Translations under genes and position numbers: made by a program | Notes under the pieces: generated by a model | The model's database searches: none | Seen by the model: the letters and a program-made list of their open reading frames with translations, nothing else | Told to the model about the DNA's origin: nothing | Source: a phage | Reading direction: 5' to 3' (one strand) | Length of the DNA stretch: 64,000 nt | Sequence record: PZ445448.1 | Shown: positions 10,757 through 39,047 of the stretch, piece after piece | Layout of the letters: every line of letters begins with the position of its first letter | Numbering within the stretch: position 1 is the first letter of the stretch

Positions 10757-11173
10757 ATGACATTAGAAGATATCATTGTTAAACCTGAGAACTATGACCA
10801 ATACAACCTGTCAACTCAATCTGTAGACCTTGGATGCGCCACAGTTAGTGCGTGGCTGGTTAATGGAAAAGAGCTGGACAAGTGCTTAGAAGCTCACATG
10901 TCTGTTAACAAGTTTCTGGATGAAAATACTCACTGGCTTGAGGGTGCTGGAGTATATGCTTCATGGTTGGAGAGCATGGGCTTTGACTATCAATCTGATG
11001 AAGGGTGGTGGAGCTATCTAGCTATCTGTCCAGAAACACTGCAATGCTTCATGAAATACTCTGAAGATCTTGAGTACCGGGCGGTGGTTGATAGTGCTAT
11101 TGCCCGTTATAGCCGTAAACCTTTTTCCCATGACATTAAAACTGTGGAAGAATTTGTTGAAGTTTTCTGTTGA
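10757..11173 (+). CDS. hypothetical protein
   Basis: 138-aa ORF; SD aaggagatc. Confidence 0.5.
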   Translation: MTLEDIIVKPENYDQYNLSTQSVDLGCATVSAWLVNGKELDKCLEAHMSVNKFLDENTHWLEGAGVYASWLESMGFDYQSDEGWWSYLAICPETLQCFMKYSEDLEYRAVVDSAIARYSRKPFSHDIKTVEEFVEVFC

Positions 11174-11198
11174 CACAGGTTGAAAGGTGTGCAATTAT
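11170..11198 (+). promoter_or_regulatory. sigma70-like promoter
   Basis: TTGACA-17 bp-AATTAT(AA). Confidence 0.4.
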
Positions 11199-11269
11199 AA
11201 CTTCATAAAACGGGAGGACGTGATGAACGAAGAAAACTGGGATGTATAACTAACAGGAGGCCACTGCCC

Positions 11270-11467
11270 ATGATTTATCGAATCCGTGTAAGAGAAGATG
11301 CACCAGGCTGTTACTTTGACTGGCGTGGGTGGTGGTTTCTCCACCCAATGGATGGACTCACAGATAGAATGCTGGATGCTGCCCTTTATACAGATACCGA
11401 CATAGAGTATAATCTTTATCTGAAGGATGGTATAGATAACGGCCTGTTTGAAGCAATTCCTGTGTAA
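11270..11467 (+). CDS. hypothetical protein
   Basis: 65-aa ORF; SD aggaggcc. Confidence 0.4.
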   Translation: MIYRIRVREDAPGCYFDWRGWWFLHPMDGLTDRMLDAALYTDTDIEYNLYLKDGIDNGLFEAIPV

Positions 11468-17907: not shown

Positions 17908-18094
17908 TTTCGAGAAAATTGTAAAGCGCCCTCATGATTCCGAAGAGCTGCCAGAACGCCGCCAGCGTAACAATAAACTGAATAAGCCAAAAAGGTTTGG
18001 GAAGATCTGGCGGAATCATTATGATCGTAAATTGCCGGGCCTACTTTTGGAACGTGAACGACAAGCGGAACGATACCGCCACAAAGACAAATAG
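17897..18094 (+). CDS. small basic protein
   Basis: Start at internal ATG after aagggggg SD; R/K-rich. Confidence 0.4.
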   Translation: MKINFEKIVKRPHDSEELPERRQRNNKLNKPKRFGKIWRNHYDRKLPGLLLERERQAERYRHKDK

Positions 18095-18099
18095 CAACC

Positions 18100-18130
18100 A
18101 ACGCCCCGCCATTGTGCGGGGCTTTTTATT
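18100..18130 (+). terminator. rho-independent terminator
   Basis: cgccccgcc attgt gcggggc followed by TTTTTATT. Confidence 0.7.
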
Positions 18131-18251
18131 TCTATCCTACGAATAGCGCCCCTGGTTGGCCCTGTAAGCGCCAAAAAGGCCCCCACCTATGCAATCGCCC
18201 CTTTAACCTGAAAACATCGCCCAGGGCCGTTTTATGGCGTTAAAAATATCA

Positions 18252-18279
18252 TTGACATCGTCAACAGGTTAGCTATACT
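18252..18279 (+). promoter_or_regulatory. sigma70 promoter
   Basis: TTGACA-16 bp-TATACT. Confidence 0.6.
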
Positions 18280-18311
18280 AACCACATCAAAGAGAGAAAG
18301 GAGTAAACGCC

Positions 18312-18572
18312 ATGCGTAAATTAAAAAATTTTGATAAAGTTGATGTTATCCTGAATAATTTTTACTACTGCAACAACAAGGCTATTTGGTGGCGTGATAG
18401 TTCCACCGATAAAGTCAAAGCGCGCTTTCTTCAGGGGCACTGGCAAGGCCGCCCAGTGATTAAAATCATGGGGCAATTGGTAGCGTTTAAAAATTGCCGC
18501 CGTGTTGATGACGTTGAGGAGATTTTAAACATTTTGCGCCACAATAATTTAAAAAATAGTGTTGACAAGTAA
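18312..18572 (+). CDS. hypothetical protein
   Basis: 86 aa; SD aaaggagtaaacgcc. Confidence 0.5.
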   Translation: MRKLKNFDKVDVILNNFYYCNNKAIWWRDSSTDKVKARFLQGHWQGRPVIKIMGQLVAFKNCRRVDDVEEILNILRHNNLKNSVDK

Positions 18573-18589
18573 ATCTCAATAAGTATAAT
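18562..18589 (+). promoter_or_regulatory. sigma70 promoter with leader hairpin
   Basis: TTGACA-16 bp-TATAAT; hairpin ggcgggaaaacttcccgcc. Confidence 0.65.
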
Positions 18590-18646
18590 TAAACACACAG
18601 GCGGGAAAACTTCCCGCCACTAACAAAGAAAACAGGAGAAAATATC

Positions 18647-19270
18647 ATGACCACCGTTAACATTACCACAGGTTACAATTTAGCTTTCGACGTGCTGACC
18701 GACGAACAAAAAGAAAAAGCCGTTGAAATGGTCCGCGAAAGAGAAGAACACAGCGGGGATAACTTTTTTGCAGAAAGTGTAATTGAAGACTATAAAGAAT
18801 ATATCTTTCCAGAGTATGGCCTTGAAGATACCGAAGTACATTGGTCCGGCTTTTGGTGCCAGGGCGACGGCGCATCAATCAGTGCGGAAAACGTGGATTT
18901 AGAAAAATTCTTGCGTAAAGTCAAGTCTCTGACTAAATTCCGCTCAATTCGTCACTTGTTCGGCACAATGCACGATGGCGAGCTATCCGCAAGTGTTGAG
19001 CGCGATCCATATAGCCGTTATAGTCACGAAAACACTGTAAGCGGGTACATCGATACTACATGGCTAGACCTGACCGCCAAACAAGAAAACAAAGTGGAAG
19101 ACCTGGAAGAACTGATCACCGAGACGGTACGGGAGCTATCCCGCAAGGTTTACGTAGACCTGGAGGAGGCCTATCTAGAACAGTTCACCGCAGAAAACCT
19201 GATCGGCCTTATCGAGGCCAATGATTGGCGGTTTGATGTCGATGAATATGGTGAGATGACTTTTTCATAA
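18647..19270 (+). CDS. hypothetical protein
   Basis: 207 aa acidic; SD aacaggagaaaatatc. Confidence 0.55.
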   Translation: MTTVNITTGYNLAFDVLTDEQKEKAVEMVREREEHSGDNFFAESVIEDYKEYIFPEYGLEDTEVHWSGFWCQGDGASISAENVDLEKFLRKVKSLTKFRSIRHLFGTMHDGELSASVERDPYSRYSHENTVSGYIDTTWLDLTAKQENKVEDLEELITETVRELSRKVYVDLEEAYLEQFTAENLIGLIEANDWRFDVDEYGEMTFS

Positions 19271-25787: not shown

Positions 25788-25810
25788 TTTTTTAACTGAA
25801 TTATCAAGGG

Positions 25811-25836
25811 GCTTAGGCCCCTTTCTTTTTGTCTGC
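25811..25836 (+). terminator. rho-independent terminator ending plus-strand block
   Basis: aggggc tta gcccct then TTCTTTTT. Confidence 0.65.
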
Positions 25837-25839
25837 TCT

Positions 25840-28310
25840 TCCTCCTACCACAAACGGCCCAGCCTGGCAAGTGGAATAATTGACTAGCCATCAATCCCAC
25901 ACACTGTACAAATATACATGGAAAATAACTATTGCATAATTTTTCATTGTGTGGTAGCAGGTCCATTTTTACCCGTTTTCTCTCTCAAAATTGCACGTAA
26001 TGCCGCTATTGCACAAAATTTAACCTGATGCACATCTTCAATATCTTGTCAACAACTAAAAATCTTTATAAGTCATACACTTACACACTCACAAAAGCGT
26101 GTTCTACGTGAAAAATCGAGTATAACTATAGCCGCCAGATCTCAGAATTTACGTACGCTCACCATTCTATAGTCTGCTAAGTATTTATTCCAACCATGGA
26201 ATAACGGAATAGTCAATACCTGCATAAAATAATTATTCGTGTAAACTGCATAACATAAATCAGCTCAGGTGTCAACATTTTTCGTAAACAGTCCGAAATT
26301 GTCACGGTGAGTTATCATAAACAGAGAAATATTTAGTCGTCTAATGTTTACTGTACATTACTATACTGACTGGAATCATTAGATGACTAAGAGAAAGATA
26401 AGAAATAATTAACAATACAATTATTTTATCTGTAACAATAAGGCAACTATGCAAACGAATGGCATGGCGCGACGGAGTCGCGACATAATATAAAAGCAGT
26501 AACCATCACCCCCGTGATAGTTTGTCTGCAAACTATTAATCAGATCATAGTTGCCTTGTATTTAGTTAATCATGACATAACAAGCAAGGCAACTATAGAT
26601 CTTCTAATAGTTGCCCTGCTTTTATATTATGTCATAGAAACACCCGAAGGGGTGACCAAAGGTCACCTGGCATGGCCAGTGAAAGATTATTAACTTGTTA
26701 ATTGTTAACTTGCTAATTGTTTTCATGCAAACGAATGTCATGGCTTATCCTATCTGTGTAAACAGTCAAGGTGTAAACTATCCAGGCGTAAACAATCTAT
26801 ACGTGAACAGTGAAACATGAAATAATAACAGTCGTTATTGTGTCGAAAGTGTATAAGGTGTCATAGTATGTCAGACAAGTTTTTCTCCTCTTTGTCAAGT
26901 GCTGCATGAAAAATTTACAAGCTTGTATGGTAGCATTTTTGCTGCCCTGTTTACATTCAGTTGTGTATGTATAACCCTTGTTGTGTGGGCGTTTAGACGT
27001 CTAGACGGTTGGAAGTCCGCAGGTTAATATCTAATCTATTGGCTGCTAACTATATCCCACACAAATAGTAAGAAATATAATTGTTATGTGCGTAAACAGT
27101 AACTCATGTTATCAATCCCTGTATGTATCGCCAGTGGTGCGCATAATGGGTATTATGTTAAATTGCCCGTAATGATAACTATTCTCACAATGATAGGTAT
27201 TCTCATTCACTCCCACAAGATAGGTTGCAAATGTTGTGCCACTGTGTGAACGGCCTCACCTATTAATTTGCCTCACTGCCTCGATATTTGAGAATTGTTA
27301 TAAGAATGAGAAGTATTCCCATTTCGTCCGCCTGGCAGCACTCCAGTCGCTACCGCTCATGACAGGGCAGAACTAGACCCTCTTCAGATATTTCTGGCTG
27401 ACTCTTCAGGCCTGTGTGGGAAAAGCCAACCTCTCCGGCGGCGGGGAGGGGTTTGTCAGGAAAATTGCAGGTCAATTAAAAAATTTACGTGGTATATGAA
27501 GCGCTCTTCAGGTAAGGCATGTATTATGGGATGAAACCCTCTTCAGGCAATGATATTTGTGGGTGTGATATTTGCTGGAAAGCCAGATATGACGGGACTC
27601 CCGGCGGGGCAGGGGTAGTACAGACAGGGGAAATATGGAGGATGTAGTTGGGGGAGTTGATCAAACAGGTAGAGTATGGAATATGTTACAAGTATGTTAA
27701 ATATGGAGGGTGGATATCTGTAGGATTTATGTGTAAAATCAAAGACTTAAGTGGTGTTGTGGTATTTTCTATAAATAATTCAAGTTTAATAGGTAATATT
27801 TGTCTCTATCCGCTTTGTGTGGTAAACAAATTCAGATGGTGTTGGTTTACAAGTGTATACATAATATACAAATTAAAGATACAAGAAACCCCCCTCCCCC
27901 TTCGGCTACCATTCACCTTTTCCTCTGACTGGTACTTAAACACTTATTCAGACTCTTCAGGTTATCACCCATATATCATATGGCAGTGACTGGTGTCCTC
28001 CGGCCCCTCTTTCGTCACCCGTCCGCTTCGCCATGCTAATGCCATAGCCAATGGTTCGGTTGTTCACCCTGTTCACTCAGGTGTATCTCCATACCCCTTC
28101 AAACCGAAGAGAACAGAAAACCCGAATTACTCGGTAAAAGAAAAGAGAAGAACTTAATTTTATCAGGATAGGCAAGAATGTCAAGGCATGACTGCTCACT
28201 AAACAAGCAAACAGTCATGTGTGGGAGGTAAGTGATTGTGGTGGTAGGAAATTTAGTTGAAAGATGTGTTATAGGTGCTCCCAGCACTTTAGCCGGGTAG
28301 CTAATTGTGT
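25840..28310. repeat. 2.5-kb repeat-rich noncoding convergent intergenic region
   Basis: No convincing ORF; GGCAACTAT/ATAGTTGCC inverted repeats, GGTGACCaaaGGTCACC palindrome, GTAAAC clusters, CTCTTCAGG x5-6, G-rich motifs. Confidence 0.6.
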
Positions 28311-31005: not shown

Positions 31006-31293
31006 TCATAGTGCCTCTAAGATTTCATATCCTTCGGGTCGGAATACAAGCCACTCCGTGGCTCCGTTTGGTCGATACGCTTTATACAGAACAACCTGGT
31101 CTCGGCACATGCACATGGCTACATAGTTTTCATCCACACCTGCAGCCTGCATTGCATCTTCTTCTCCGGCAACTGCTTTGCTTACAACTTCCTTGGTAGG
31201 CAGGTGTGCGATCAGCTCGTCACCATCATTAATTCCAAAATGGCTGAGTTCGCCGTTGGTATCTTTAATCTTAATCTTAACCAGATCTTTCAT
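31006..31293 (-). CDS. small acidic protein, MKxK paralog family
   Basis: 95 aa; tandem member of diverged family. Confidence 0.5.
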   Translation of the reverse strand: MKDLVKIKIKDTNGELSHFGINDGDELIAHLPTKEVVSKAVAGEEDAMQAAGVDENYVAMCMCRDQVVLYKAYRPNGATEWLVFRPEGYEILEAL

Positions 31294-31622
31294 TAGTCTT
31301 CCCCCAGGTTCAAAGGTCCTAAGATTTCATATGCCAGATTAGAAGTTACAAGAGGGTCTTCTGCGTCTTTAGTATTATACCACCCGTGAATAACCAGAGT
31401 CCCACTTTGTTTCATGTCCAACTGGAACTCTTCTGCCGTTTCCTCATCCAGCTCCAAGATTTCCATAAGGTATTTGATGTTAGGGAGGTATGCAGCTGTT
31501 ACAGTCCCCTCTACCAGACCTTCAGGCCAACCTACATCTGGATGACAAGTAGGAACCAGATTGGTCAGCTTAATGGTGTACGCTTTTTCTGCACGAGCCT
31601 TCAGTAACGGGTCAATCTTCAT
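31293..31622 (-). CDS. small acidic protein, paralog family
   Basis: 109 aa; shares start/stop nucleotide with neighbours. Confidence 0.5.
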   Translation of the reverse strand: MKIDPLLKARAEKAYTIKLTNLVPTCHPDVGWPEGLVEGTVTAAYLPNIKYLMEILELDEETAEEFQLDMKQSGTLVIHGWYNTKDAEDPLVTSNLAYEILGPLNLGED

Positions 31623-31972
31623 TATTCGTCCTCCTCTTCGGTACCTGCTTCCAGTAATAAGTTAAGAATATCTTCTGCACAAGGCTCATAGAACTCTTGG
31701 CCTTCATTATCGATGATTTTGTAGTCATCTCCGCGAATAATCAGAGGATCACTCTCAAAATTATCGAGACCTTTAACAACGACAACACGATCGATTGCCA
31801 TCATTGTAAGAACTTTATCGACATCTTCCTCTGCTACACCATACTGCAGCAGAATGTCTTTGGTAGGAGGAACAGCATCCACCACAACACCGTTACCAAA
31901 ACCTTCCGGTAAGTTAGCTAAAATATCTTCCGGAACCACACTAACATCAAAACCAGTAATTTCTACTTTCAT
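31622..31972 (-). CDS. small acidic protein, paralog family
   Basis: 116 aa; MKVEITG start, acidic tail. Confidence 0.5.
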   Translation of the reverse strand: MKVEITGFDVSVVPEDILANLPEGFGNGVVVDAVPPTKDILLQYGVAEEDVDKVLTMMAIDRVVVVKGLDNFESDPLIIRGDDYKIIDNEGQEFYEPCAEDILNLLLEAGTEEEDE

Positions 31973-32233
31973 TTACAGCACCTCTTCGTCAACTACTTCA
32001 TAAAAATGGCCTGGGATTGCAATAGCGTTCTCACCTTCACCTACAAACACAGTTCCGTCAAGAATCAACATCATAAGAGTTTCTGGAATATCCTCTTCCT
32101 GAACGTTGCCAAAACCTTTAATCAGCTCGTAGGTTGGAAGATTTACCTCTAAGATGTCACCATCTTTAGAGCGGAAATCAACACCATCCTGAATCTCTGC
32201 CATTTCAAGGTTTTTCAGTTTAATCTTCATCAA
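31973..32233 (-). CDS. small acidic protein, paralog family
   Basis: 86 aa; MMKIKLKNL...VVDEEVL; minus promoter TTGACA..AATAAT ~32262-32291. Confidence 0.5.
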   Translation of the reverse strand: MMKIKLKNLEMAEIQDGVDFRSKDGDILEVNLPTYELIKGFGNVQEEDIPETLMMLILDGTVFVGEGENAIAIPGHFYEVVDEEVL

Positions 32234-32309
32234 TCAGTCTCCCGTCTTGTTAAGATGAAGGTATTATTTCACACAGGGTTGGCGTTGTCAACACCTGTGT
32301 GCAAGAAAA

Positions 32310-32705
32310 TTACTGAAACAGTGCGGATAAATTACCTTCTGGTGGGAACTTATCTGCCAAAAACGGTGTTAGCACAGTAGCCTTCTGAAGATCTGGGGTC
32401 CACTCGTTGTTCAGAACATCCCAGTAGTACGCAATGTTGCTGTGTGGGTGCCGCATTACGAACTTTTTCCCTTCGTAGTCATCTGAAACCTCTACAGAAG
32501 AAATAACAACAGAATCTTCAAGGGTTTCTTCATAGAAAGATCCACCTTCAAATTTCCAACGAGATGCAAGAGCTCCTGCCTTGAACGCTGCAGATAACGG
32601 ACTGTCTGCAAGAACATACATTTCTTGCACTCTGTCGCTGCGATCTTTGCTTCTTACGTTGTATACAGTATCTGAGCTATACTCAACACGGTATAGGCTT
32701 ACCAT
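32310..32705 (-). CDS. hypothetical protein, paralog of 34512..34910
   Basis: Shared HP.S....YW......WTP motif. Confidence 0.5.
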   Translation of the reverse strand: MVSLYRVEYSSDTVYNVRSKDRSDRVQEMYVLADSPLSAAFKAGALASRWKFEGGSFYEETLEDSVVISSVEVSDDYEGKKFVMRHPHSNIAYYWDVLNNEWTPDLQKATVLTPFLADKFPPEGNLSALFQ

Positions 32706-33064
32706 TACCGCACCTCCTCAATAACTTCCACATCTGAGCCCACCACAAATGCAAAAGGACAGGTTTCATGAAAGACATCCGGATCGCCGCCAAGCTTGCT
32801 AACAATCTCTCCACCACTAATAAACACAAGCTCACCGATATTCATCAGATTGCTGAAATAGTACCCATAATGATTAAAGAATGCAGCAGGGTCAGGTAGA
32901 CTAGTAGCCTCAAGCACTACATCAGTTGAGGTTACTTTCTTATCATAACCTCTCGCCTTTTGAGATGCAAGATCTGCAGAATCCTCAGGCGACCGGAGAT
33001 GCACAGGAATTGTTTCACCAATAAAGCGTACTTTCATATTATCACCCAACAACCATAGCTTCAA
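32705..33064 (-). CDS. small acidic protein, paralog family
   Basis: 119 aa; ...DVEVIEEVR ending. Confidence 0.45.
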   Translation of the reverse strand: MKLWLLGDNMKVRFIGETIPVHLRSPEDSADLASQKARGYDKKVTSTDVVLEATSLPDPAAFFNHYGYYFSNLMNIGELVFISGGEIVSKLGGDPDVFHETCPFAFVVGSDVEVIEEVR

Positions 33065-33305
33065 AAGGGGTCATGAACGAATAAACGGCATCATCATCTG
33101 CTTCAGGGAATGCTCCCAAAGACTTCATGTCTGAGCCCTTGACAAATACAAGGTTTTGATCAAAAGCTTCTTGAGGATCAATCCGATACATATTTCGTAG
33201 AATATCGCCTACCTCCTCATCAAGAGGTGAGTATGCTGTGCACGTTTTTCCGATCAAGCTTTGAGAATCAGGGTATCCACCTGAAGTTTTAAAATAAACA
33301 ATCAT
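33042..33305 (-). CDS. hypothetical protein
   Basis: 87-aa ORF. Confidence 0.45.
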   Translation of the reverse strand: MIVYFKTSGGYPDSQSLIGKTCTAYSPLDEEVGDILRNMYRIDPQEAFDQNLVFVKGSDMKSLGAFPEADDDAVYSFMTPFEAMVVG

Positions 33306-33396
33306 ATAGTATCACCTCTGGTAAGAGATTGGGATTCCTTTCCCACAAATAATTACAAACCTTCCTTATCGAGGAAGTATGCTAATCCAAGCAGGA

Positions 33397-33666
33397 TTAT
33401 TCCTCTACAATCTCATACACATCCGGAGTTACAATCAACTCTTCTCCGTTACCCGGTGCAACAAACACCACCATGCCTTCAGGTGTGTGCTTTTTAGCCA
33501 TCTCGATAACATCTTCTCGCAGAGCTGGCTCCATCAGATCAAAACCTTCACCCAGGGCATCACGAACCACCTTCATATAGTCAACTGGTTGTGCTTCGAC
33601 AATCATACCTTCAACCAGTCCACAGTTTTTGTCTGCCAGCTCAGTTTTGAATAATTTAATTTTCAT
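33397..33666 (-). CDS. small acidic protein, paralog family
   Basis: 89 aa; MKIKLFK...YEIVEE. Confidence 0.5.
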   Translation of the reverse strand: MKIKLFKTELADKNCGLVEGMIVEAQPVDYMKVVRDALGEGFDLMEPALREDVIEMAKKHTPEGMVVFVAPGNGEELIVTPDVYEIVEE

Positions 33667-33803
33667 TTAGAGGTCTCCTCAATTATTTGATATTAATAGC
33701 CGTAACCTAACACATTAACTACAACTGCGATTGCAAACATAATTTCAAAGCATGCAATCTCTACATTTGGAACTAATTTCTTGATCACACCCATTGTAGC
33801 ACC

Positions 33804-34121
33804 TCATTCTCTAAAGTCAATCTTTACTTTGCCTTTCCCCTTACCTTTCTTTCCACCGCATTTAGCCAGTTGACGTGCTGCAACATCTACCATACGGTCA
33901 GTTGCCTCGTAAGCATCACTGCCTTTAGCTTTGGCAATAACTTCTTTTCCAGAATTGTCAAAAATGAACGCCATAACTTCCTGGTGATCATTTTCAACTT
34001 TTACACTCACACGTGCATAGTTGGCAGAGGGATGCAAACGCTCCAGCTTAGACATTTTGTGGGAAATGAAAGACACCATACCTTCAGTGATTTCTACGTT
34101 GCCAGTGATTTCAATTTGCAT
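33804..34121 (-). CDS. ribosome hibernation promoting factor (HPF/RaiA)-like protein
   Basis: MQIEITGNVEITEGM...KLERL...VKVE...ARQLAK parallels E. coli HPF MQLNITGNNVEITEAL...KLEQY...LKVE...ARQLTK; minus promoter ~34168-34196. Confidence 0.7.
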   Translation of the reverse strand: MQIEITGNVEITEGMVSFISHKMSKLERLHPSANYARVSVKVENDHQEVMAFIFDNSGKEVIAKAKGSDAYEATDRMVDVAARQLAKCGGKKGKGKGKVKIDFRE

Positions 34122-34203
34122 AACGTGTTCCTTTTAAAGAAGAGGGAACCAAACCCTCTTTGAAAACAATGATACTAAATCTGAAGCGTTGTGTCAACAG
34201 TTT

Positions 34204-34494
34204 TTACAGATTGTTGTCGATAGTTTTTAAAATATCCACAGCAAGATCTGCCATTTTTCGAACATACTCTGCAAACTCAACAGGATCCTTGATCAAAGAA
34301 TTCACAGGGTCGTACCCTAGAGCGTTCAAAATGGCTGCAGCATCTACAACCTTCTCATCATTTGCGAAGATCTCTCCATCAAACTTGTAGGTCCATTTTG
34401 AGTCAATCTTGGCAGGGAATGATTGGTCAACGCTTGTTACACCATCCTTTTTAAACGCTCCGGTGTTATCAGTGTCTAGAACTAAATCCATCAT
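34204..34494 (-). CDS. hypothetical protein
   Basis: 96-aa ORF. Confidence 0.5.
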   Translation of the reverse strand: MMDLVLDTDNTGAFKKDGVTSVDQSFPAKIDSKWTYKFDGEIFANDEKVVDAAAILNALGYDPVNSLIKDPVEFAEYVRKMADLAVDILKTIDNNL

Positions 34495-34511
34495 GTTAGT
34501 ACCTCACCGTT

Positions 34512-34910
34512 TCAGTTTAGCTTTTCTTCAACAACCCCATAGCTCGGGACAGAGTCAAGAGCTTTCTGGTTTAAAAGTGGTGTAGCAGAATCTGCAAACG
34601 GTGTCCAAGTTTTTGTTCTGGCATTCCAGTAATGCTTCACTCTGGAATCTGGATGCACTATAACAAAAACTTTTTCACTTGTCAACACATTAATTTCTTC
34701 TACACCCTTGCTGATAATTTCTCCGTCATAGCCACCAGTCTGGTATCCTTCGTACCAGGTTCTTGCATATGCATAGCCAGCCTGCCAGCATGCAGCCTCC
34801 TCCGAGGTGGAGACTACGTAGAAGTCTTTCTCAAATTCTGGGATACGCCCTTGCTTTACGCTCCAAGCTCCGCGAATTTTCATTGTAACTTTGAACAGTT
34901 TATTTTTCAC
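34512..34910 (-). CDS. hypothetical protein, paralog of 32310..32705
   Basis: VIVHPDSRVKHYWNARTKTWTP matches VMRHPHSNIAYYWDVLNNEWTP. Confidence 0.5.
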   Translation of the reverse strand: MKNKLFKVTMKIRGAWSVKQGRIPEFEKDFYVVSTSEEAACWQAGYAYARTWYEGYQTGGYDGEIISKGVEEINVLTSEKVFVIVHPDSRVKHYWNARTKTWTPFADSATPLLNQKALDSVPSYGVVEEKLN

Positions 34911-34922
34911 AACGGTTACCCA

Positions 34923-35177
34923 TCACAGCTCTACAATCTCTGCATCTGACCCTGCCCCAAAGGCATAATAGGATTCTTCCCCGAAATAATATTCCGGTGC
35001 ACCAGCAGCGATCAGGTCTGATCCCAAGATAAACACCACGTTGTGGCCTACATAACTGTGATGTTGCCGCACAGGATCATCCCACGGCAACCCTTCAAAG
35101 TATACCGCAGGAACGACCTTTCCCTTCAGGAAGGATTGTCCCAAGTAGACGTTAGAATCAAGAATTTTAACCTTCAT
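34923..35177 (-). CDS. small acidic protein, paralog family
   Basis: MKVKILDSNVYLGQ...DLIAAGAPEYYF...AEIVEL. Confidence 0.5.
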   Translation of the reverse strand: MKVKILDSNVYLGQSFLKGKVVPAVYFEGLPWDDPVRQHHSYVGHNVVFILGSDLIAAGAPEYYFGEESYYAFGAGSDAEIVEL

Positions 35178-35394
35178 TCTCGTCCTCCACTATCTCTACA
35201 TCCTCACCAAGGGCAAAGTTGTAGGTCCACTGGCTGTCAAAGCAGTCCTGAGATGCACCAGCGGAAATAAGATCTGCACCTTTTATTTTTAAAAGGTCAG
35301 GATAATCTTCGTTAGGGATAGCGGTAAACACTTTCCCCACTAAGGGCTCCTGACCAATATAGAAGCTTGAATCTAAAACTTTAACTTTCATCAA
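35167..35394 (-). CDS. small acidic protein, paralog family
   Basis: MKVKVLDSSFYIGQ...DLISAGASQDCF...VEIVEDE. Confidence 0.5.
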   Translation of the reverse strand: MMKVKVLDSSFYIGQEPLVGKVFTAIPNEDYPDLLKIKGADLISAGASQDCFDSQWTYNFALGEDVEIVEDENEG

Positions 35395-35678
35395 CGGTCT
35401 CCCTCAGGCGGTTGTGGGACGTAAACACTGTTACGAATATCGTCAGCAGTGTAGTAATAAGTGGTTCCAACCCTATCTCGGGCTGCAATGTACTCTGCTA
35501 TACCAATAAGTGCCATTGATTTGGTGGCGTATCTTCCCCACTCGTTAGCTCCCCAGTAGAATTTAGACCAGTAGGGAATAATACCGAACAAATATACCTT
35601 TTGACGAACTTCCCAGTAAGTGCCTTTTCCGACAAGTTTAAACTCTACTTCACTACTGTTAATCTTTTTCATTATCAA
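35391..35678 (-). CDS. hypothetical protein
   Basis: 95-aa ORF, W/Y-rich. Confidence 0.45.
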   Translation of the reverse strand: MIMKKINSSEVEFKLVGKGTYWEVRQKVYLFGIIPYWSKFYWGANEWGRYATKSMALIGIAEYIAARDRVGTTYYYTADDIRNSVYVPQPPEGDR

Positions 35679-35971
35679 TCTCCCTCTACCGTGGTCGGAT
35701 TGTCAGTAAGAAATTGAGCATTGGCTGGAGGCACGCCTGACATTTTCCACACAACCATAAGTTTGTAACCAGGAACTCTATTAAGTGCAGATCGAGTAGA
35801 GTTTGTGCACGTATACTTTCGCTTTCCAAACCCGTTCTCCATCATAATCCAGTACCCAGTATCTTTGTCACCAGGTATCGGTAGACCACCTTCATCAACC
35901 CACTGAATGGACCACGGCACGATGGCTACAGCTTTATATTTAAACTTTTTAAACCACTCAAAAAGTTTCAT
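35675..35971 (-). CDS. hypothetical protein
   Basis: 98-aa ORF. Confidence 0.45.
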   Translation of the reverse strand: MKLFEWFKKFKYKAVAIVPWSIQWVDEGGLPIPGDKDTGYWIMMENGFGKRKYTCTNSTRSALNRVPGYKLMVVWKMSGVPPANAQFLTDNPTTVEGD

Positions 35972-36066
35972 AATTCAGCCTCGCATAGACATAATCACTA
36001 TAAACAGGCAAACAATGAATCCGAATGCCACGCCACCCATAAACGTTAATATTGATGCAATCATAG

Positions 36067-36252
36067 TCAATCAGCCTCGCTTGGCAACTCTTCTACCTTA
36101 ACATGCCGAAAAGTGTTACCGTAATGGTTGATCCATGACATCAGCTCGCTTTCTTGCTCTTCCTCTGGGATGAACTCTCGAATGCTGACAAGTTTTAAGA
36201 AAACCCAATCACAATCTGCACCCATTCTACCAGACAGGCAATAGTGCTTCAT
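36067..36252 (-). CDS. hypothetical protein
   Basis: Start moved to ATG after ggtggggg SD to avoid overlap with 36269..36463. Confidence 0.35.
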   Translation of the reverse strand: MKHYCLSGRMGADCDWVFLKLVSIREFIPEEEQESELMSWINHYGNTFRHVKVEELPSEAD

Positions 36253-36268
36253 AAAACCCCCACCTGGT

Positions 36269-36463
36269 TTAGAATATTGCTTCTTCCATTGCACCTGAGA
36301 GCAACAAAGAGGTGATCTGGCTAACATTCATCTCAGACTCTACTTCCTCCCCTTTGAAAGGTTCGCGGCAGAATAGGACTGTTTCAGGACTTTTACTTCG
36401 AACAATATAATACAAATCATTCAATGTGTTGTAGTAATAAGTGTTAAAACGTAAGTTTTTCAT
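36269..36463 (-). CDS. hypothetical protein
   Basis: 64-aa ORF. Confidence 0.4.
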   Translation of the reverse strand: MKNLRFNTYYYNTLNDLYYIVRSKSPETVLFCREPFKGEEVESEMNVSQITSLLLSGAMEEAIF

Positions 36464-36747
36464 TTTCTAGTCCCCTTCTTAGATTTTTGTGTAGAAACGC
36501 TTTCTGCAATACGAGACAAACGTTCTTCTGAAGCCTTGCCTATTCCAGGTTTTTTGAGTGGGTTATCTTTATGACCACAATCCAATTGGATATTGGATAC
36601 CTCTCCAACCTTGTAAGTCAATTCTAGCAAAAGGTTGTCGTCCTTGTCAAATGTTCTTACGATAAATTTTTTATCGTTCTCCTGAACTTCGTATCGGGTA
36701 CCCGCAGTATACAGCATGGTGCCATCCGCATAGGATATCCAGATCAT
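36460..36747 (-). CDS. hypothetical protein
   Basis: 95-aa ORF. Confidence 0.45.
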   Translation of the reverse strand: MIWISYADGTMLYTAGTRYEVQENDKKFIVRTFDKDDNLLLELTYKVGEVSNIQLDCGHKDNPLKKPGIGKASEERLSRIAESVSTQKSKKGTRK

Positions 36748-37091
36748 TGAACCTCCTTCTGCTGCAACAGCATTAACTCTTTGTTGGAGATTTTTACTGC
36801 TGTTTTTATTGTTCCATCTTCACGAAACCACGACCAGAACTCTACAGTGTCCCCACTGTCAAGCAAAGCATACCCGTGGTAGAAGTCTTTGTCCTTAGAC
36901 AGTTTCTCATCTATGTCTGCATCGACACATTCGTGATCCATAGCATTTTGCCTGAATGCATCGGTTATACCAATGCACGCCTTGCTCTCAAGACTGGTAT
37001 ATCCGATATCTTTTAATTCAGTTTCCCAAGTCCAGTACCCTATAAAAGCTAAAACAGCTACCCACATTAATAACGTTTTAATCTTTGGCAT
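36744..37091 (-). CDS. membrane-anchored protein
   Basis: N-terminal TM LLMWVAVLAFIGYWTW. Confidence 0.45.
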   Translation of the reverse strand: MPKIKTLLMWVAVLAFIGYWTWETELKDIGYTSLESKACIGITDAFRQNAMDHECVDADIDEKLSKDKDFYHGYALLDSGDTVEFWSWFREDGTIKTAVKISNKELMLLQQKEVQ

Positions 37092-37153
37092 TCTCTCTAC
37101 CTCTTTCTTAGTTTATTTCACTATGGCACATCCTTTGTGCCATATCTCAACCA

Positions 37154-37615
37154 CTACTTAAATAGTAGTCCAAAATAGTGCAAAATTAACAGAAGTTGAA
37201 CTACACCTAGTGCAACGGCGAGTATGTTAATCTTAGAATCGAAAAACTTCTTAACTTTTACTCTAAAAGGTTCCTTAATGTCCTTTACGATCCTATTTAT
37301 AGATGATTTCATATCCCTGATTACCATCCTAAACATTAGAGACGGATCTTCCTTCTCTGTAATAGAATCGAAAACATACTCTCTTCGGTCATAAGGACCT
37401 CCAGATCTGCGTATTAACCTCTCCACAGAGACCTCGTACGACACACCTGTAACGTAATCATCTATGATAAGTAGTGACGGGTCTTTATCGTCCAAGGGTA
37501 TTAAAGTTATCTTTCCAGATTTTGTTAAAATTTCCCCTTTTTCAAGCAAGGTGTACCAATGCTCTCTGCCAAGACTGTTGAGGCACGTTTTTACATATTT
37601 AACAAACATCGTCAC
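37154..37615 (-). CDS. tail-anchored membrane protein
   Basis: C-terminal TM ILAVALGVVQLLLILHYFGLLF. Confidence 0.45.
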   Translation of the reverse strand: MTMFVKYVKTCLNSLGREHWYTLLEKGEILTKSGKITLIPLDDKDPSLLIIDDYVTGVSYEVSVERLIRRSGGPYDRREYVFDSITEKEDPSLMFRMVIRDMKSSINRIVKDIKEPFRVKVKKFFDSKINILAVALGVVQLLLILHYFGLLFK

Positions 37616-37797
37616 CCCTCATCGCACGTCTGATATAACCACTCTATAAAATCTTGATACCATTCGCCCTCTGAGCGCTCCGTAGGCCAATAATCTTCAC
37701 CCTCTCGTGCATTAAAATCTGAGTATTCAACTTTCCACTCCTTTACCAGCTCGTGGAGAAGGTTTTCAGCCTGCTCTAAAGATTTATTTTTTACCAT
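37612..37797 (-). CDS. hypothetical acidic protein
   Basis: Start at ATG (MVKNKS) after aaaaaggagacagca SD; track ORF uses upstream TTG. Confidence 0.4.
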   Translation of the reverse strand: MVKNKSLEQAENLLHELVKEWKVEYSDFNAREGEDYWPTERSEGEWYQDFIEWLYQTCDEG

Positions 37798-37891
37798 TGC
37801 TGTCTCCTTTTTCAAGATAGTTATACATCAGAACTGCACCACCTAAGATGGCTACCAGTAACAATACCCCAGATAGCATCTCAATAAACAT
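37784..37891 (-). CDS. small hydrophobic peptide (35 aa)
   Basis: MFIEMLSGVLLLVAILGGAVLMY; below track cutoff; overlaps neighbours. Confidence 0.25.
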   Translation of the reverse strand: MFIEMLSGVLLLVAILGGAVLMYNYLEKGDSNGKK

Positions 37892-38016
37892 GGCTTGAAA
37901 CACTGGAAGGCCTCCCTAAATTAACGCACCATTTTAAATACATGCTCTTTTCCCATAAAGGTGCCTGGCTAAGATCTGCGTAGAACGCAATCTCTTTAAG
38001 AACAGTATAAACAGTT

Positions 38017-38253
38017 TTAGGTGCGGTCTCCATCCCTACCCTCCTTTTTCTCCTTACGGATATTCTTGTAGTAATCAACCAAGCACATTATCACGATGAA
38101 GATAACAACAGGCCAAAAAGGTGCAGCAGTGATGATGGTGATAAAATCATCAAACTTCACCCTTCGTCTGGACACGATGCATACACCTGTCAAGAATACC
38201 GCTGTTATAACGGACATTACCAGGTAACCTATTAGCACAACATTTATACTCAT
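38017..38253 (-). CDS. two-TM membrane protein (holin-like topology)
   Basis: Two hydrophobic segments then charged tail KNIRKEKKEGRDGDRT; not adjacent to the endolysin. Confidence 0.4.
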   Translation of the reverse strand: MSINVVLIGYLVMSVITAVFLTGVCIVSRRRVKFDDFITIITAAPFWPVVIFIVIMCLVDYYKNIRKEKKEGRDGDRT

Positions 38254-38283
38254 TGGTCCTCCCTTTGTAGGTTAAATTGTATA

Positions 38284-38817
38284 CTACAAATGGTCGCTGA
38301 GGGTGTCAAGAAAATTATCCCGTTCTTTCTCAGAGTTTTCATGTGTGTAGCTGAAAAACATATCGAGAATAACCTTATTGATATATTCCAGCTCCTCTGT
38401 GTTCAGATGCTTAGCAGGATCTACAATGACATCCCAAATATCATACAGACCGCACTCATGATACCCATAACGCCACTCAATTGTCAAGCTGAGCGGCAAA
38501 TCTTTACCTTCACAAACAACCTTCCATCTACATATGTTGGTATCTGGTCGTACCTGTGCACGGTACACCTGCACAAAATCCAATTTGAATTTGAGGTACT
38601 CGTCATACAATTTAAGCACAAAGCTCTCGATTTGTGGAGACACTTTTGCAGCAAACTGTGCGTATTTGTACTTGCACTGGATGATCTTTCTGCGTTTTGC
38701 AGTTAAATTTTTTGCCGCCAGTTGTTCTTCAGTGTATCTCCACCTACGATCAACAAACGCAACAGGGTCTTTGTCCCCATAGAGGTCTTCCCAGTTAATC
38801 AGAAGCATACCTGTCAC
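38284..38817 (-). CDS. hypothetical protein
   Basis: 177-aa ORF. Confidence 0.5.
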   Translation of the reverse strand: MTGMLLINWEDLYGDKDPVAFVDRRWRYTEEQLAAKNLTAKRRKIIQCKYKYAQFAAKVSPQIESFVLKLYDEYLKFKLDFVQVYRAQVRPDTNICRWKVVCEGKDLPLSLTIEWRYGYHECGLYDIWDVIVDPAKHLNTEELEYINKVILDMFFSYTHENSEKERDNFLDTLSDHL

Positions 38818-39047
38818 TCCTCCACAACTTCAAGGCCTTTACCGCCTCGCTCTGGCAGATTACTTAAAGATAGGTAATACATATAATCAGGAGAGATCCT
38901 GCCAGACTCTGCACCTGCAGCTAGTAAATCCTTCCCTTTAACCAGGACAACATTCTCGTTTGCAGATAGCCGTTTTGCTTCCACAATTTTACCAACACAG
39001 TCAACCAAGGAAGGGTACCCTAAATCTGTAAGAAATTTAACTTTCAT
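38814..39047 (-). CDS. small acidic protein, paralog family
   Basis: MKVKFLTDLGY...DLLAAGAES...LEVVEE. Confidence 0.5.
   Translation of the reverse strand: MKVKFLTDLGYPSLVDCVGKIVEAKRLSANENVVLVKGKDLLAAGAESGRISPDYMYYLSLSNLPERGGKGLEVVEE

Follow-up and report, generated by a model that had tools for sequence, protein, structure and literature searches.

Why should an rV5-like coliphage carry a tightly packed run of small genes that look alike at both ends, and are these genes copies of one another? The question is raised by sequence record PZ445448.1, of which we analysed a stretch of 64,000 nucleotides (hereafter the window), and in particular by the minus-strand genes between positions 31,006 and 35,394. 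The window is that of a Vequintavirus, a genus of rV5-like myoviruses with genomes of ~136 kb, and shares 99% identity with phages nomine and RudolfGeigy. Over the 4.4-kb interval the identity is 99.3% with Escherichia phage nomine and 99.2% with RudolfGeigy (Bas52), and 116 of 120 matching phage records, essentially all of them Vequintavirus, cover at least 80% of it. In Bas52 all genes of the interval are annotated as 'hypothetical protein' bar one ribosome hibernation factor, and our literature search found no mention of paralogs or of duplication in these genes in the rV5 genome paper (PMC3606486). An original prediction, made from the sequence alone, described a single array of at least 8-10 diverged acidic paralogs on the minus strand. 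The genes themselves are real, matching 'hypothetical protein' coding sequences of RudolfGeigy/Bas52, and they are similar to one another by BLASTP and by profile searches; what did not hold is that they make up one family. We are confident that twelve minus-strand genes instead form three old paralog families, which we term A, B and C.

Family A consists of five genes with the motif G-x-D-L-I-A-A-G-A, namely 38814, 35167, 34923, 33042 and 32705 (genes are named here by their lower window coordinate, and all lie on the minus strand). The G.DL(I/L)AAGA segment had also been assigned to 33397, 31973 and 31622, from which it is absent. In an all-against-all BLASTP comparison of 32 local open reading frame (ORF) proteins, family A is joined by the pairs 34923-35167 (E 7e-15), 35167-38814 (E 2e-6), 32705-35167 (E 8e-5) and 33042-38814 (E 2e-3). 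When leave-one-out profile hidden Markov models (HMMs) were searched against all 389 ORFs of the window, with 2000 shuffles as control, each of the five members was found at E <= 1e-5 and none of the 2000 shuffles matched the real score; the similarity therefore goes beyond composition. No further member was found among the 389 ORFs with small or broad profiles, the best non-member having an E value of ~0.06.

Paralog identity within family A is 23-49%. The 77-aa protein of 38814 (38814..39047; phrog_5009 E 8e-36; leave-one-out HMM E 6e-6) shares 66% identity with the only A gene found in the distant L003 lineage and 43% with a homolog in the mEp021-like MagusPhagus, and it probably represents the conserved, ancestral type of the family. 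The minimal form of the domain is that of 35167 (35167..35391; 74 aa from the annotated ATG; phrog_5009 E 1e-36). Its neighbour 34923 (34923..35177; 84 aa; phrog_5009 E 4e-32) is the closest paralog, with 49% identity (41% in the BLASTP alignment), has a 14-residue insertion between strands 2 and 3 of the predicted fold and overlaps its upstream gene by 11 nt. An insertion of ~20 residues in the same place distinguishes 33042 (33042..33305; 87 aa), which was found by the leave-one-out HMM at E 4e-6 and matches phrog_5009 weakly (E 1e-4). The 87-aa protein A0A5B9MW73 of Shigella phage CM1, a match to family A in BFVD with a template modelling (TM) score of 0.80, is probably the ortholog of 33042, judging from its length and from the kinship of CM1 to Bas58. 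Finally, 32705 (32705..33037; 110 aa from the annotated ATG) has two insertions and a degenerate motif, GGEIVSKLGG, and was found at E 1e-5 by the leave-one-out HMM and at E 1e-9 by a broad A profile. P0005 and P0007, each representing a cluster, begin with the N-terminal half of 35167 and continue in frame with the C-terminal half of 34923; such chimeras indicate, from their sequences, unequal recombination between the adjacent paralogs.

Family B comprises five genes without the A motif, namely 33397, 31973, 31622, 31293 and 31006, with paralog identities of 24-35%. In the same BLASTP comparison the pairs 31622-31973, 31006-31622 and 31293-31622 match at E 8e-4, 4e-3 and 2e-2, respectively, and the leave-one-out HMMs found four members at E 9e-6 to 9e-4. 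The fifth, 31293, was marginal with five-sequence profiles (E 0.5, with 7 of 2000 shuffles matching its score). With a profile enriched in orthologs from other lineages, from which 31293 and its own orthologs were excluded, it was found at E 6.6e-5, the next ORF being at E 0.56, and hhalign gave P 9e-5. The 89-aa gene 33397 (33397..33666; leave-one-out HMM E 9e-4) is set apart from the other four by a block of two A genes and one C gene; its ortholog in L003, which is 56% identical, also matches 31973 (E 6e-6) and 31006 (E 1e-5). The remaining four form an operon that opens with 31973 (31973..32230; 85 aa) and continues with 31622 (31622..31972; 116 aa; leave-one-out HMM E 3e-4), which has an acidic C-terminal extension of ~27 residues and a net charge of -22. 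The most divergent member, 31293 (31293..31622; 109 aa), is absent from L003, and 31006 (31006..31293; 95 aa; leave-one-out HMM E 9e-6) closes the operon. In a 98-aa protein, P0094, from a contig of 657 nt, an unrelated N-terminal segment (with a listed PF24132 match) precedes the C-terminal half of 31293, through either a genuine domain swap or chimeric assembly.

Family C is the pair 34512 and 32310, which had been singled out for a shared HP.S....YW......WTP motif. That pairing is borne out: the two proteins match by BLASTP at E 7e-10, both belong to phrog_7379, and H86, P87, S89, W95 and W102 are invariant in an alignment of four family C sequences. The start codon of 32310 (32310..32705; 131 aa; phrog_7379 E 2e-66) shares 1 nt with the stop codon of 32705. 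For 34512 (34512..34910) the Bas52 annotation uses an internal ATG nine codons downstream of the GTG at 34910 (34883-34910), giving 123 aa rather than 132 aa. The annotated start is probably too short, because the N-terminus of the longer form aligns with 32310, with the L003 ortholog and with the full phrog_7379 profile (E 5e-74, residues 2-132). No sequence relative of family C with a solved structure was found.

How, then, are A and B related to each other? AlphaFold models were built from alignments of paralogs and homologs, with one query for each family. The family A model (35167, 22 sequences) has a predicted local distance difference test score (pLDDT) of 92.4 and a predicted TM score (pTM) of 0.80, with strands at residues 2-5, 21-23, 33-37, 56-61 and 65-69 and a short helix, residues 38-43, that bears the DLIAAGA motif. 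The family B model (31973, 18 sequences; pLDDT 86.6, pTM 0.73) has strands at residues 2-5, 26-28, 61-63, 70-72 and 77-79, and its helices 34-38 and 45-57 both lie between strands 2 and 3. Structure comparison recognises the class, and both families are predicted to be SH3-like five-stranded beta-barrels; canonical SH3, KOW and PsaE small beta-barrels are among the closest known systems. The MKVK and EIVEE ends form strands 1 and 5, and the shared terminal motifs therefore belong to the barrel. In the models, A and B appear to differ mainly in two places, the insert between strands 2 and 3 and the helix that follows strand 3, and the insertions of 34923, 33042 and 32705 coincide in position with the helical insert of family B. 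A Pfam scan of the A, B and C genes gave no match at E <= 1, no SH3-clan family was matched in a scan of 61 family A relatives, and no NCBIfam match came near its cut-off. Hits to LRAT, HTH_16, RluB, PA5033 and designed Kelch-like proteins were far below curated cut-offs and were dismissed as noise. Sequence and fold searches returned no match to a protein of known function.

At the level of sequence, A and B could not be joined. Using hhalign, the two families match with a probability of 0.7% with small profiles and of 5.3% (P 0.007, strands 1-2 only) with enlarged profiles, that of A comprising 70 sequences and that of B extended to a similar degree; the insertion-bearing A subgroup matches B with a probability of 0.7%. 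Since no profile-profile comparison was significant, whether small, large or restricted to the insertion subgroup, and whether local, global or at a low threshold, we do not claim homology of A and B; on the models, their common ancestry is plausible. The N-terminal MK motif and the acidic C-terminus to which the original prediction drew attention are indeed common to the two families. The pattern MK[VI][KRE][ILFV] occurs at the N-terminus of 8 of ~132 window genes, and six of the 132 have an acidic [IV][IV][ED] close to the C-terminus; five genes have the two motifs together, every one an A or B gene. Acidity as such sets the families apart only in part: the isoelectric point (pI) is 4.05-4.7 in nine of the ten A and B genes, but most neighbouring genes are acidic too.

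The copies are old. A 128-kb metagenomic contig, L019, has collinear one-to-one orthologs of all five A genes (74, 65, 42, 57 and 54% identity), all five B genes (60, 49, 29, 47 and 46%, with 47% for 31293) and 32310 (40%), and is without an ortholog of 34512. More distant contigs from IMG/VR (L003-L006, 118-141 kb, without a cultured relative) retain one A, one C and four B genes; in L003 the identities are 66% for a 38814-type A gene, 38% for a 34512-type C gene and 56, 30, 40 and 38% for the four B genes, the third and fourth of these values belonging to 31622 and 31006. These orthologs mean that the lineages split only after the B array, and at least one gene each of A and C, were in place. 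Against L002, a lineage ~85% identical to the window, the ratio of nonsynonymous to synonymous substitution (dN/dS) is 0.04-0.16 in 11 of the 12 genes, with the highest values (0.13-0.16) in 31293, 31622 and 31973; for 31006 dS is saturated, and constraint was judged from 86% amino-acid identity. By these comparisons, all twelve genes are under purifying selection. From the distribution of orthologs, the origin of the families is tandem duplication before the known Vequintavirus-like lineages split, possibly with duplication of an A-A-C segment in addition. The order A-A-C occurs twice, and positional pairs are 31% and 29% identical, only slightly above the 28% and 27% of the cross pairs, while the adjacent 35167 and 34923 are closest at 49%; the segmental duplication is a candidate, and these identities do not settle the choice.

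Losses and rearrangements are also seen. Bas59 (EduardKellenberger) has a natural 3.8-kb deletion of window positions 34598-38411 (locus L007, 12622-12636), with ~15 bp common to the junction, that removes 35167, 34923 and most of 34512. The resulting fusion ORF, which takes its 5' part from 38284 and its 3' part from 34512, is still annotated as 'putative glycosidase'. In L018 (8141-8275) the ortholog of 34923 is shortened to 44 codons. Insertions specific to single lineages lie beside or within the array: in L003 an ORF of 370 aa (17955-19067), by eye similar to an IS200/IS605 TnpB-type transposase, lies ~1.3 kb downstream of the last B gene, and in L019 a PF27050 (Phage_P22_Y8K6) gene (11092-11388) stands between the C gene and the first B gene.

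Beyond the Vequintavirus group the three families behave differently. A single-protein word-index search returned close orthologs only, and profiles were required for more. When the family A profile was run with HMMER over the complete set of 1.84 billion representative proteins (E <= 1e-3), it yielded 81 clusters at 50% identity, reaching many unrelated phages and prophages. Most of these proteins are stand-alone, 63-90 aa long, with the consensus MKVKLLxxGGYxG...GxELIxxGA...YxF...ExExVE; P0100, P0102, P0122, P0131 and P0167 have two or three copies of the domain per chain, and P0135 is fused to DUF3310. Among 61 family A members no Pfam family was matched by more than one (best E 0.033), while 59 of 61 diverse family A proteins match phrog_5009 and the others match nine further PHROGs, all of unknown function. 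Foldseek comparison of the family A model with BFVD returned uncharacterised phage proteins only (RB49, Merlin, CS01, pSf-1, VpV262 and others). Temperate coliphages of the mEp021-like type, and prophages of that type, have a homolog between Q antiterminator and holin, and a literature search returned nothing on mEp021 gene 40; a 42.5-kb phage has one copy beside its replication genes and a second on the other strand, and phages of Proteus, Pantoea, Klebsiella and Aeromonas have homologs as well. The other two families, B and C, were found in Vequintavirus-like genomes and Vequintavirus-sized contigs only, and five A copies only in the Vequintavirus-like lineages examined, against one or two in the other phage loci inspected. 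The lineage-specific expansion that had been proposed thus applies to B, to C and to the number of A copies, but family A itself reaches unrelated phages, its copies are old, and the array does not turn over fast. PHROGs already holds the window genes as full-length members (E 1e-32 to 1e-76) of families of unknown function, namely 5009, 13367, 8603, 7345 and related entries for A, 12794, 12457, 12155, 12359 and 11868 for B, and 7379 for C; it differs from our grouping in that each B gene and two A genes are split into separate families, and neither the paralogy nor the shared fold is recorded.

Signals for expression were sought across the neighbourhood. Between 28 and 42 kb, sigma-70-like sites that agree with the consensus at 10 or more of 12 positions number 13 on the minus strand and one on the plus strand. 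One of these, with TTGACA, a 17-nt spacer, AATAAT and a preceding TG (32263..32291, minus strand; 11 of 12 consensus positions), occupies the 79-nt gap ahead of the B operon. Another (34169..34197, minus strand; TTGACA, 17-nt spacer, TATCAT; 11 of 12) precedes the hibernation-factor gene, is conserved in L002 and is predicted to divide the interval into separate transcription units. A further site with a perfect TTGACA lies in an intergenic gap at 33820-33793 on the minus strand. From these sites we infer early or middle expression by host polymerase; no Vequintavirus transcriptome was found in a literature search. In the order of transcription, 38814 (A) is followed by about ten other genes, then by 35167 (A), 34923 (A), 34512 (C), 34204 and the hibernation factor 33804, and after it by 33397 (B), 33042 (A), 32705 (A), 32310 (C), 31973 (B), 31622 (B), 31293 (B) and 31006 (B). 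The genes are packed as tightly as had been described, with gaps of -11 to +5 nt at most junctions, and lie in translationally coupled runs. At junctions 32705, 31972, 31622, 35177 and 38808, the acidic C-terminal codons (GAGGAG, GGAGG) are also the Shine-Dalgarno sequence of the next gene, and such dual coding may constrain the protein ends.

What might such proteins do? Our tentative preference is that A and B are small, soluble protein-binding modules of an early or middle accessory block, each paralog with its own partner. The conserved barrel would serve as a scaffold, and the insertion between strands 2 and 3, together with the loop after the helix, would form the specificity surface. 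The paralogs would bind different host or phage proteins early or midway through infection and so adjust host physiology, each being dispensable on its own on a laboratory host. Reuse of the scaffold is suggested by the 81 family A clusters, the tandem-copy proteins and the DUF3310 fusion, and dispensability by Bas59, which still grows on K-12 without window positions 34598-38411, and by the chimeric and truncated copies of other isolates. Protein partners are favoured over nucleic acids because the pI is acidic. In T4, T5 and SPO1, small non-essential early or host-takeover genes are likewise clustered behind host-type promoters. Those clusters resemble the present one in their packed genes of 60-130 aa, their sigma-70-type promoters, the dispensability of single genes and their mostly unknown functions; they differ in that here ten genes have one predicted fold and are old tandem duplicates kept as one-to-one orthologs.

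Several points weigh against this proposal. The relationship between A and B would rest on models and terminal motifs, without significant sequence similarity, and the shared acidic C-terminus is partly confounded by the embedded Shine-Dalgarno codons. There are also SH3-like barrels that bind nucleic acids or peptidoglycan, and some that have no ligand. The promoters do not prove early timing, as consensus E. coli promoters occur throughout the rV5 genome, with a T4-late-like motif before structural genes (PMC3606486).

One alternative is an anti-defence arsenal, in which each paralog inhibits a different immune system and divergence tracks an arms race. Small acidic proteins that are encoded beside a methylase in an accessory block and have host-type promoters would suit such a role, and copies are lost, fused or cut down in some isolates; the mEp021-like homolog sits in the variable Q-holin block, a classic accessory-gene site, and orthologs in L019 are 29-74% identical against 67-85% for neighbouring enzymes. 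Yet Vequintavirinae are reported to be exceptionally susceptible to restriction-modification (PMC8594841), and Bas59, with the deletion, plates like Bas58, which has kept the genes, on six restriction and five abortive-infection systems. In the BASEL raw data (PMC8594841) the values for both phages are ~0.1-0.8 on EcoKI, ~1e-4 on EcoRI and ~1 on EcoCFT_I, RexAB, PifA, Old and Tin, with zero plaques on EcoRV, EcoCFT_II and Fun/Z; EcoPI restricts both strongly (no plaques for Bas58, <=1e-3 for Bas59). As this panel of 11 systems is small and the phages differ elsewhere, the comparison only lowers the probability of an anti-defence role. Nor does the array, with its one-to-one orthologs and dN/dS <=0.16, behave with the presence/absence turnover typical of anti-defence genes, and no match to a solved or annotated anti-defence protein was found. 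We consider such an arsenal unlikely.

Alternatively, the proteins could be accessory factors for the phage's own processes, as adaptors or chaperones in replication, transcription or lysis. The precedent is DUF7244, an SH3-clan protein, small and stand-alone, of T1-like Drexlerviridae, which infect Gram-negative hosts; a role of this kind has been proposed for it (PMC13164509). The family A model has weak structural similarity to proteins of T1-like phages (pSf-1, SRT8 and NBD2), and DUF7244 lies beside the lysis cassette just as the mEp021-like A homolog lies immediately upstream of the holin. The likeness has limits: no Pfam DUF7244 match was found in any of the twelve genes or the 61 family A relatives, nor a match to another SH3 family, and the Vequintavirus genes are multi-copy arrays away from lysis genes, none of which was seen among the examined genes of the 29-46 kb block; only the mEp021-like homologs are near a holin. 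Strong purifying selection and long-term retention fit such a role, and in the 42.5-kb phage a family A homolog lies between primase-polymerase and AAA_24/DUF669 genes. Genomic context nevertheless varies among phages and implies no single process, and a phage that has lost two A genes and one C gene plates with no obvious defect; this explanation, too, seems improbable to us.

We find it very hard to credit that the barrels bind nucleic acids, in the manner of KOW, Sm or Tudor domains, or mimic DNA, and so act on transcription, translation or DNA-binding host enzymes. A pI of 4.05-4.7 argues against direct nucleic-acid binding. The same strong negative charge would fit DNA mimicry, and a ribosome hibernation factor is encoded next door, but known DNA mimics are mostly elongated helical proteins. 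Least of all do we believe that there is no real family, and that the resemblances stem from composition, chance or Shine-Dalgarno sequences in gene ends: the C-terminal EE codons do double as downstream ribosome-binding sites at the five junctions and the sequence link between A and B is not significant, but the leave-one-out profiles find every member, the similarity spans the full length of the proteins, 33397 and 34923 retain the acidic end without an overlapping downstream ribosome-binding site and the structure models are confident, which refutes this explanation within A, within B and within C and leaves it standing for the common ancestry of A and B only.

Returning to protein-binding modules, a bolder version would make A and B one phage-wide superfamily, so far uncurated, of the form MKVKLL...GxELIxxGA...EVVEE: a diversifiable binder scaffold deployed as tandem genes (ten here) or as tandem domains (up to three, as in P0100). 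This is decidedly a long shot. Were it true, each copy would have a different host target, some of them immune proteins, and the repeated A-A-C order would be a functional cassette.

The surroundings of the array offer some further observations. The GC skew switches sign near 28 kb, and the genes from 29 to 64 kb are entirely on the minus strand. The accessory block around the paralogs also encodes a ribosome hibernation factor, a Dam-like methylase and a ClpP-like protease. The hibernation factor, of the short HPF/YfiA type (33804..34121, minus strand; PF02482 E 1.8e-12, above the curated cut-off; phrog_8990), is a non-member amid the array and has its own sigma-70-like promoter, conserved in L002, as given above; the other non-member inside the interval, 34204-34494 on the minus strand, is unrelated to the families. 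The 'putative glycosidase' gene at 38284-38817 (minus strand) has no Pfam match and is 50% identical between the window and L002, against 84-97% for its neighbours, reflecting either unusually fast evolution or replacement. At the strand switch (25800-28300, mainly 26433-26633) lies an annotation-free, AT-rich stretch (GC 0.39), which the rV5 paper labels 'non-coding' (PMC3606486). Within it, ATAGTTGCC(Y)TG or its complement occurs at least five times, as direct and as inverted copies, together with a perfect 18-nt inverted repeat (26482-26499 / 26616-26633). By sequence these repeats look iteron-like, and the stretch may be an origin or a regulatory site; tRNA and Rfam scans of this stretch and of the paralog region gave zero matches. 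Finally, 18 'Campylobacter phage' records (MG0656xx, host Campylobacter jejuni) match the interval, the two listed doing so at 98% over 100% of the query, and their host labels look doubtful.

Multigene families of small accessory phage proteins are a known phenomenon; what is new here is that a fold has been assigned and that the copies have proved to be old. As the copies are ancient and individually conserved, they are probably functionally distinct, which corrects the picture of an arsenal in rapid evolution. Phages of the rV5-like group rank among the most often isolated coliphages and are candidates for therapy and biocontrol, and about one-third of their genome consists of small 'hypothetical' genes. 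Twelve such genes can now be placed in just three old families, with a single predicted fold for ten of the twelve, which makes a compact set of targets for follow-up, the more so as family A spreads across unrelated phages and prophages without a Pfam family of its own.

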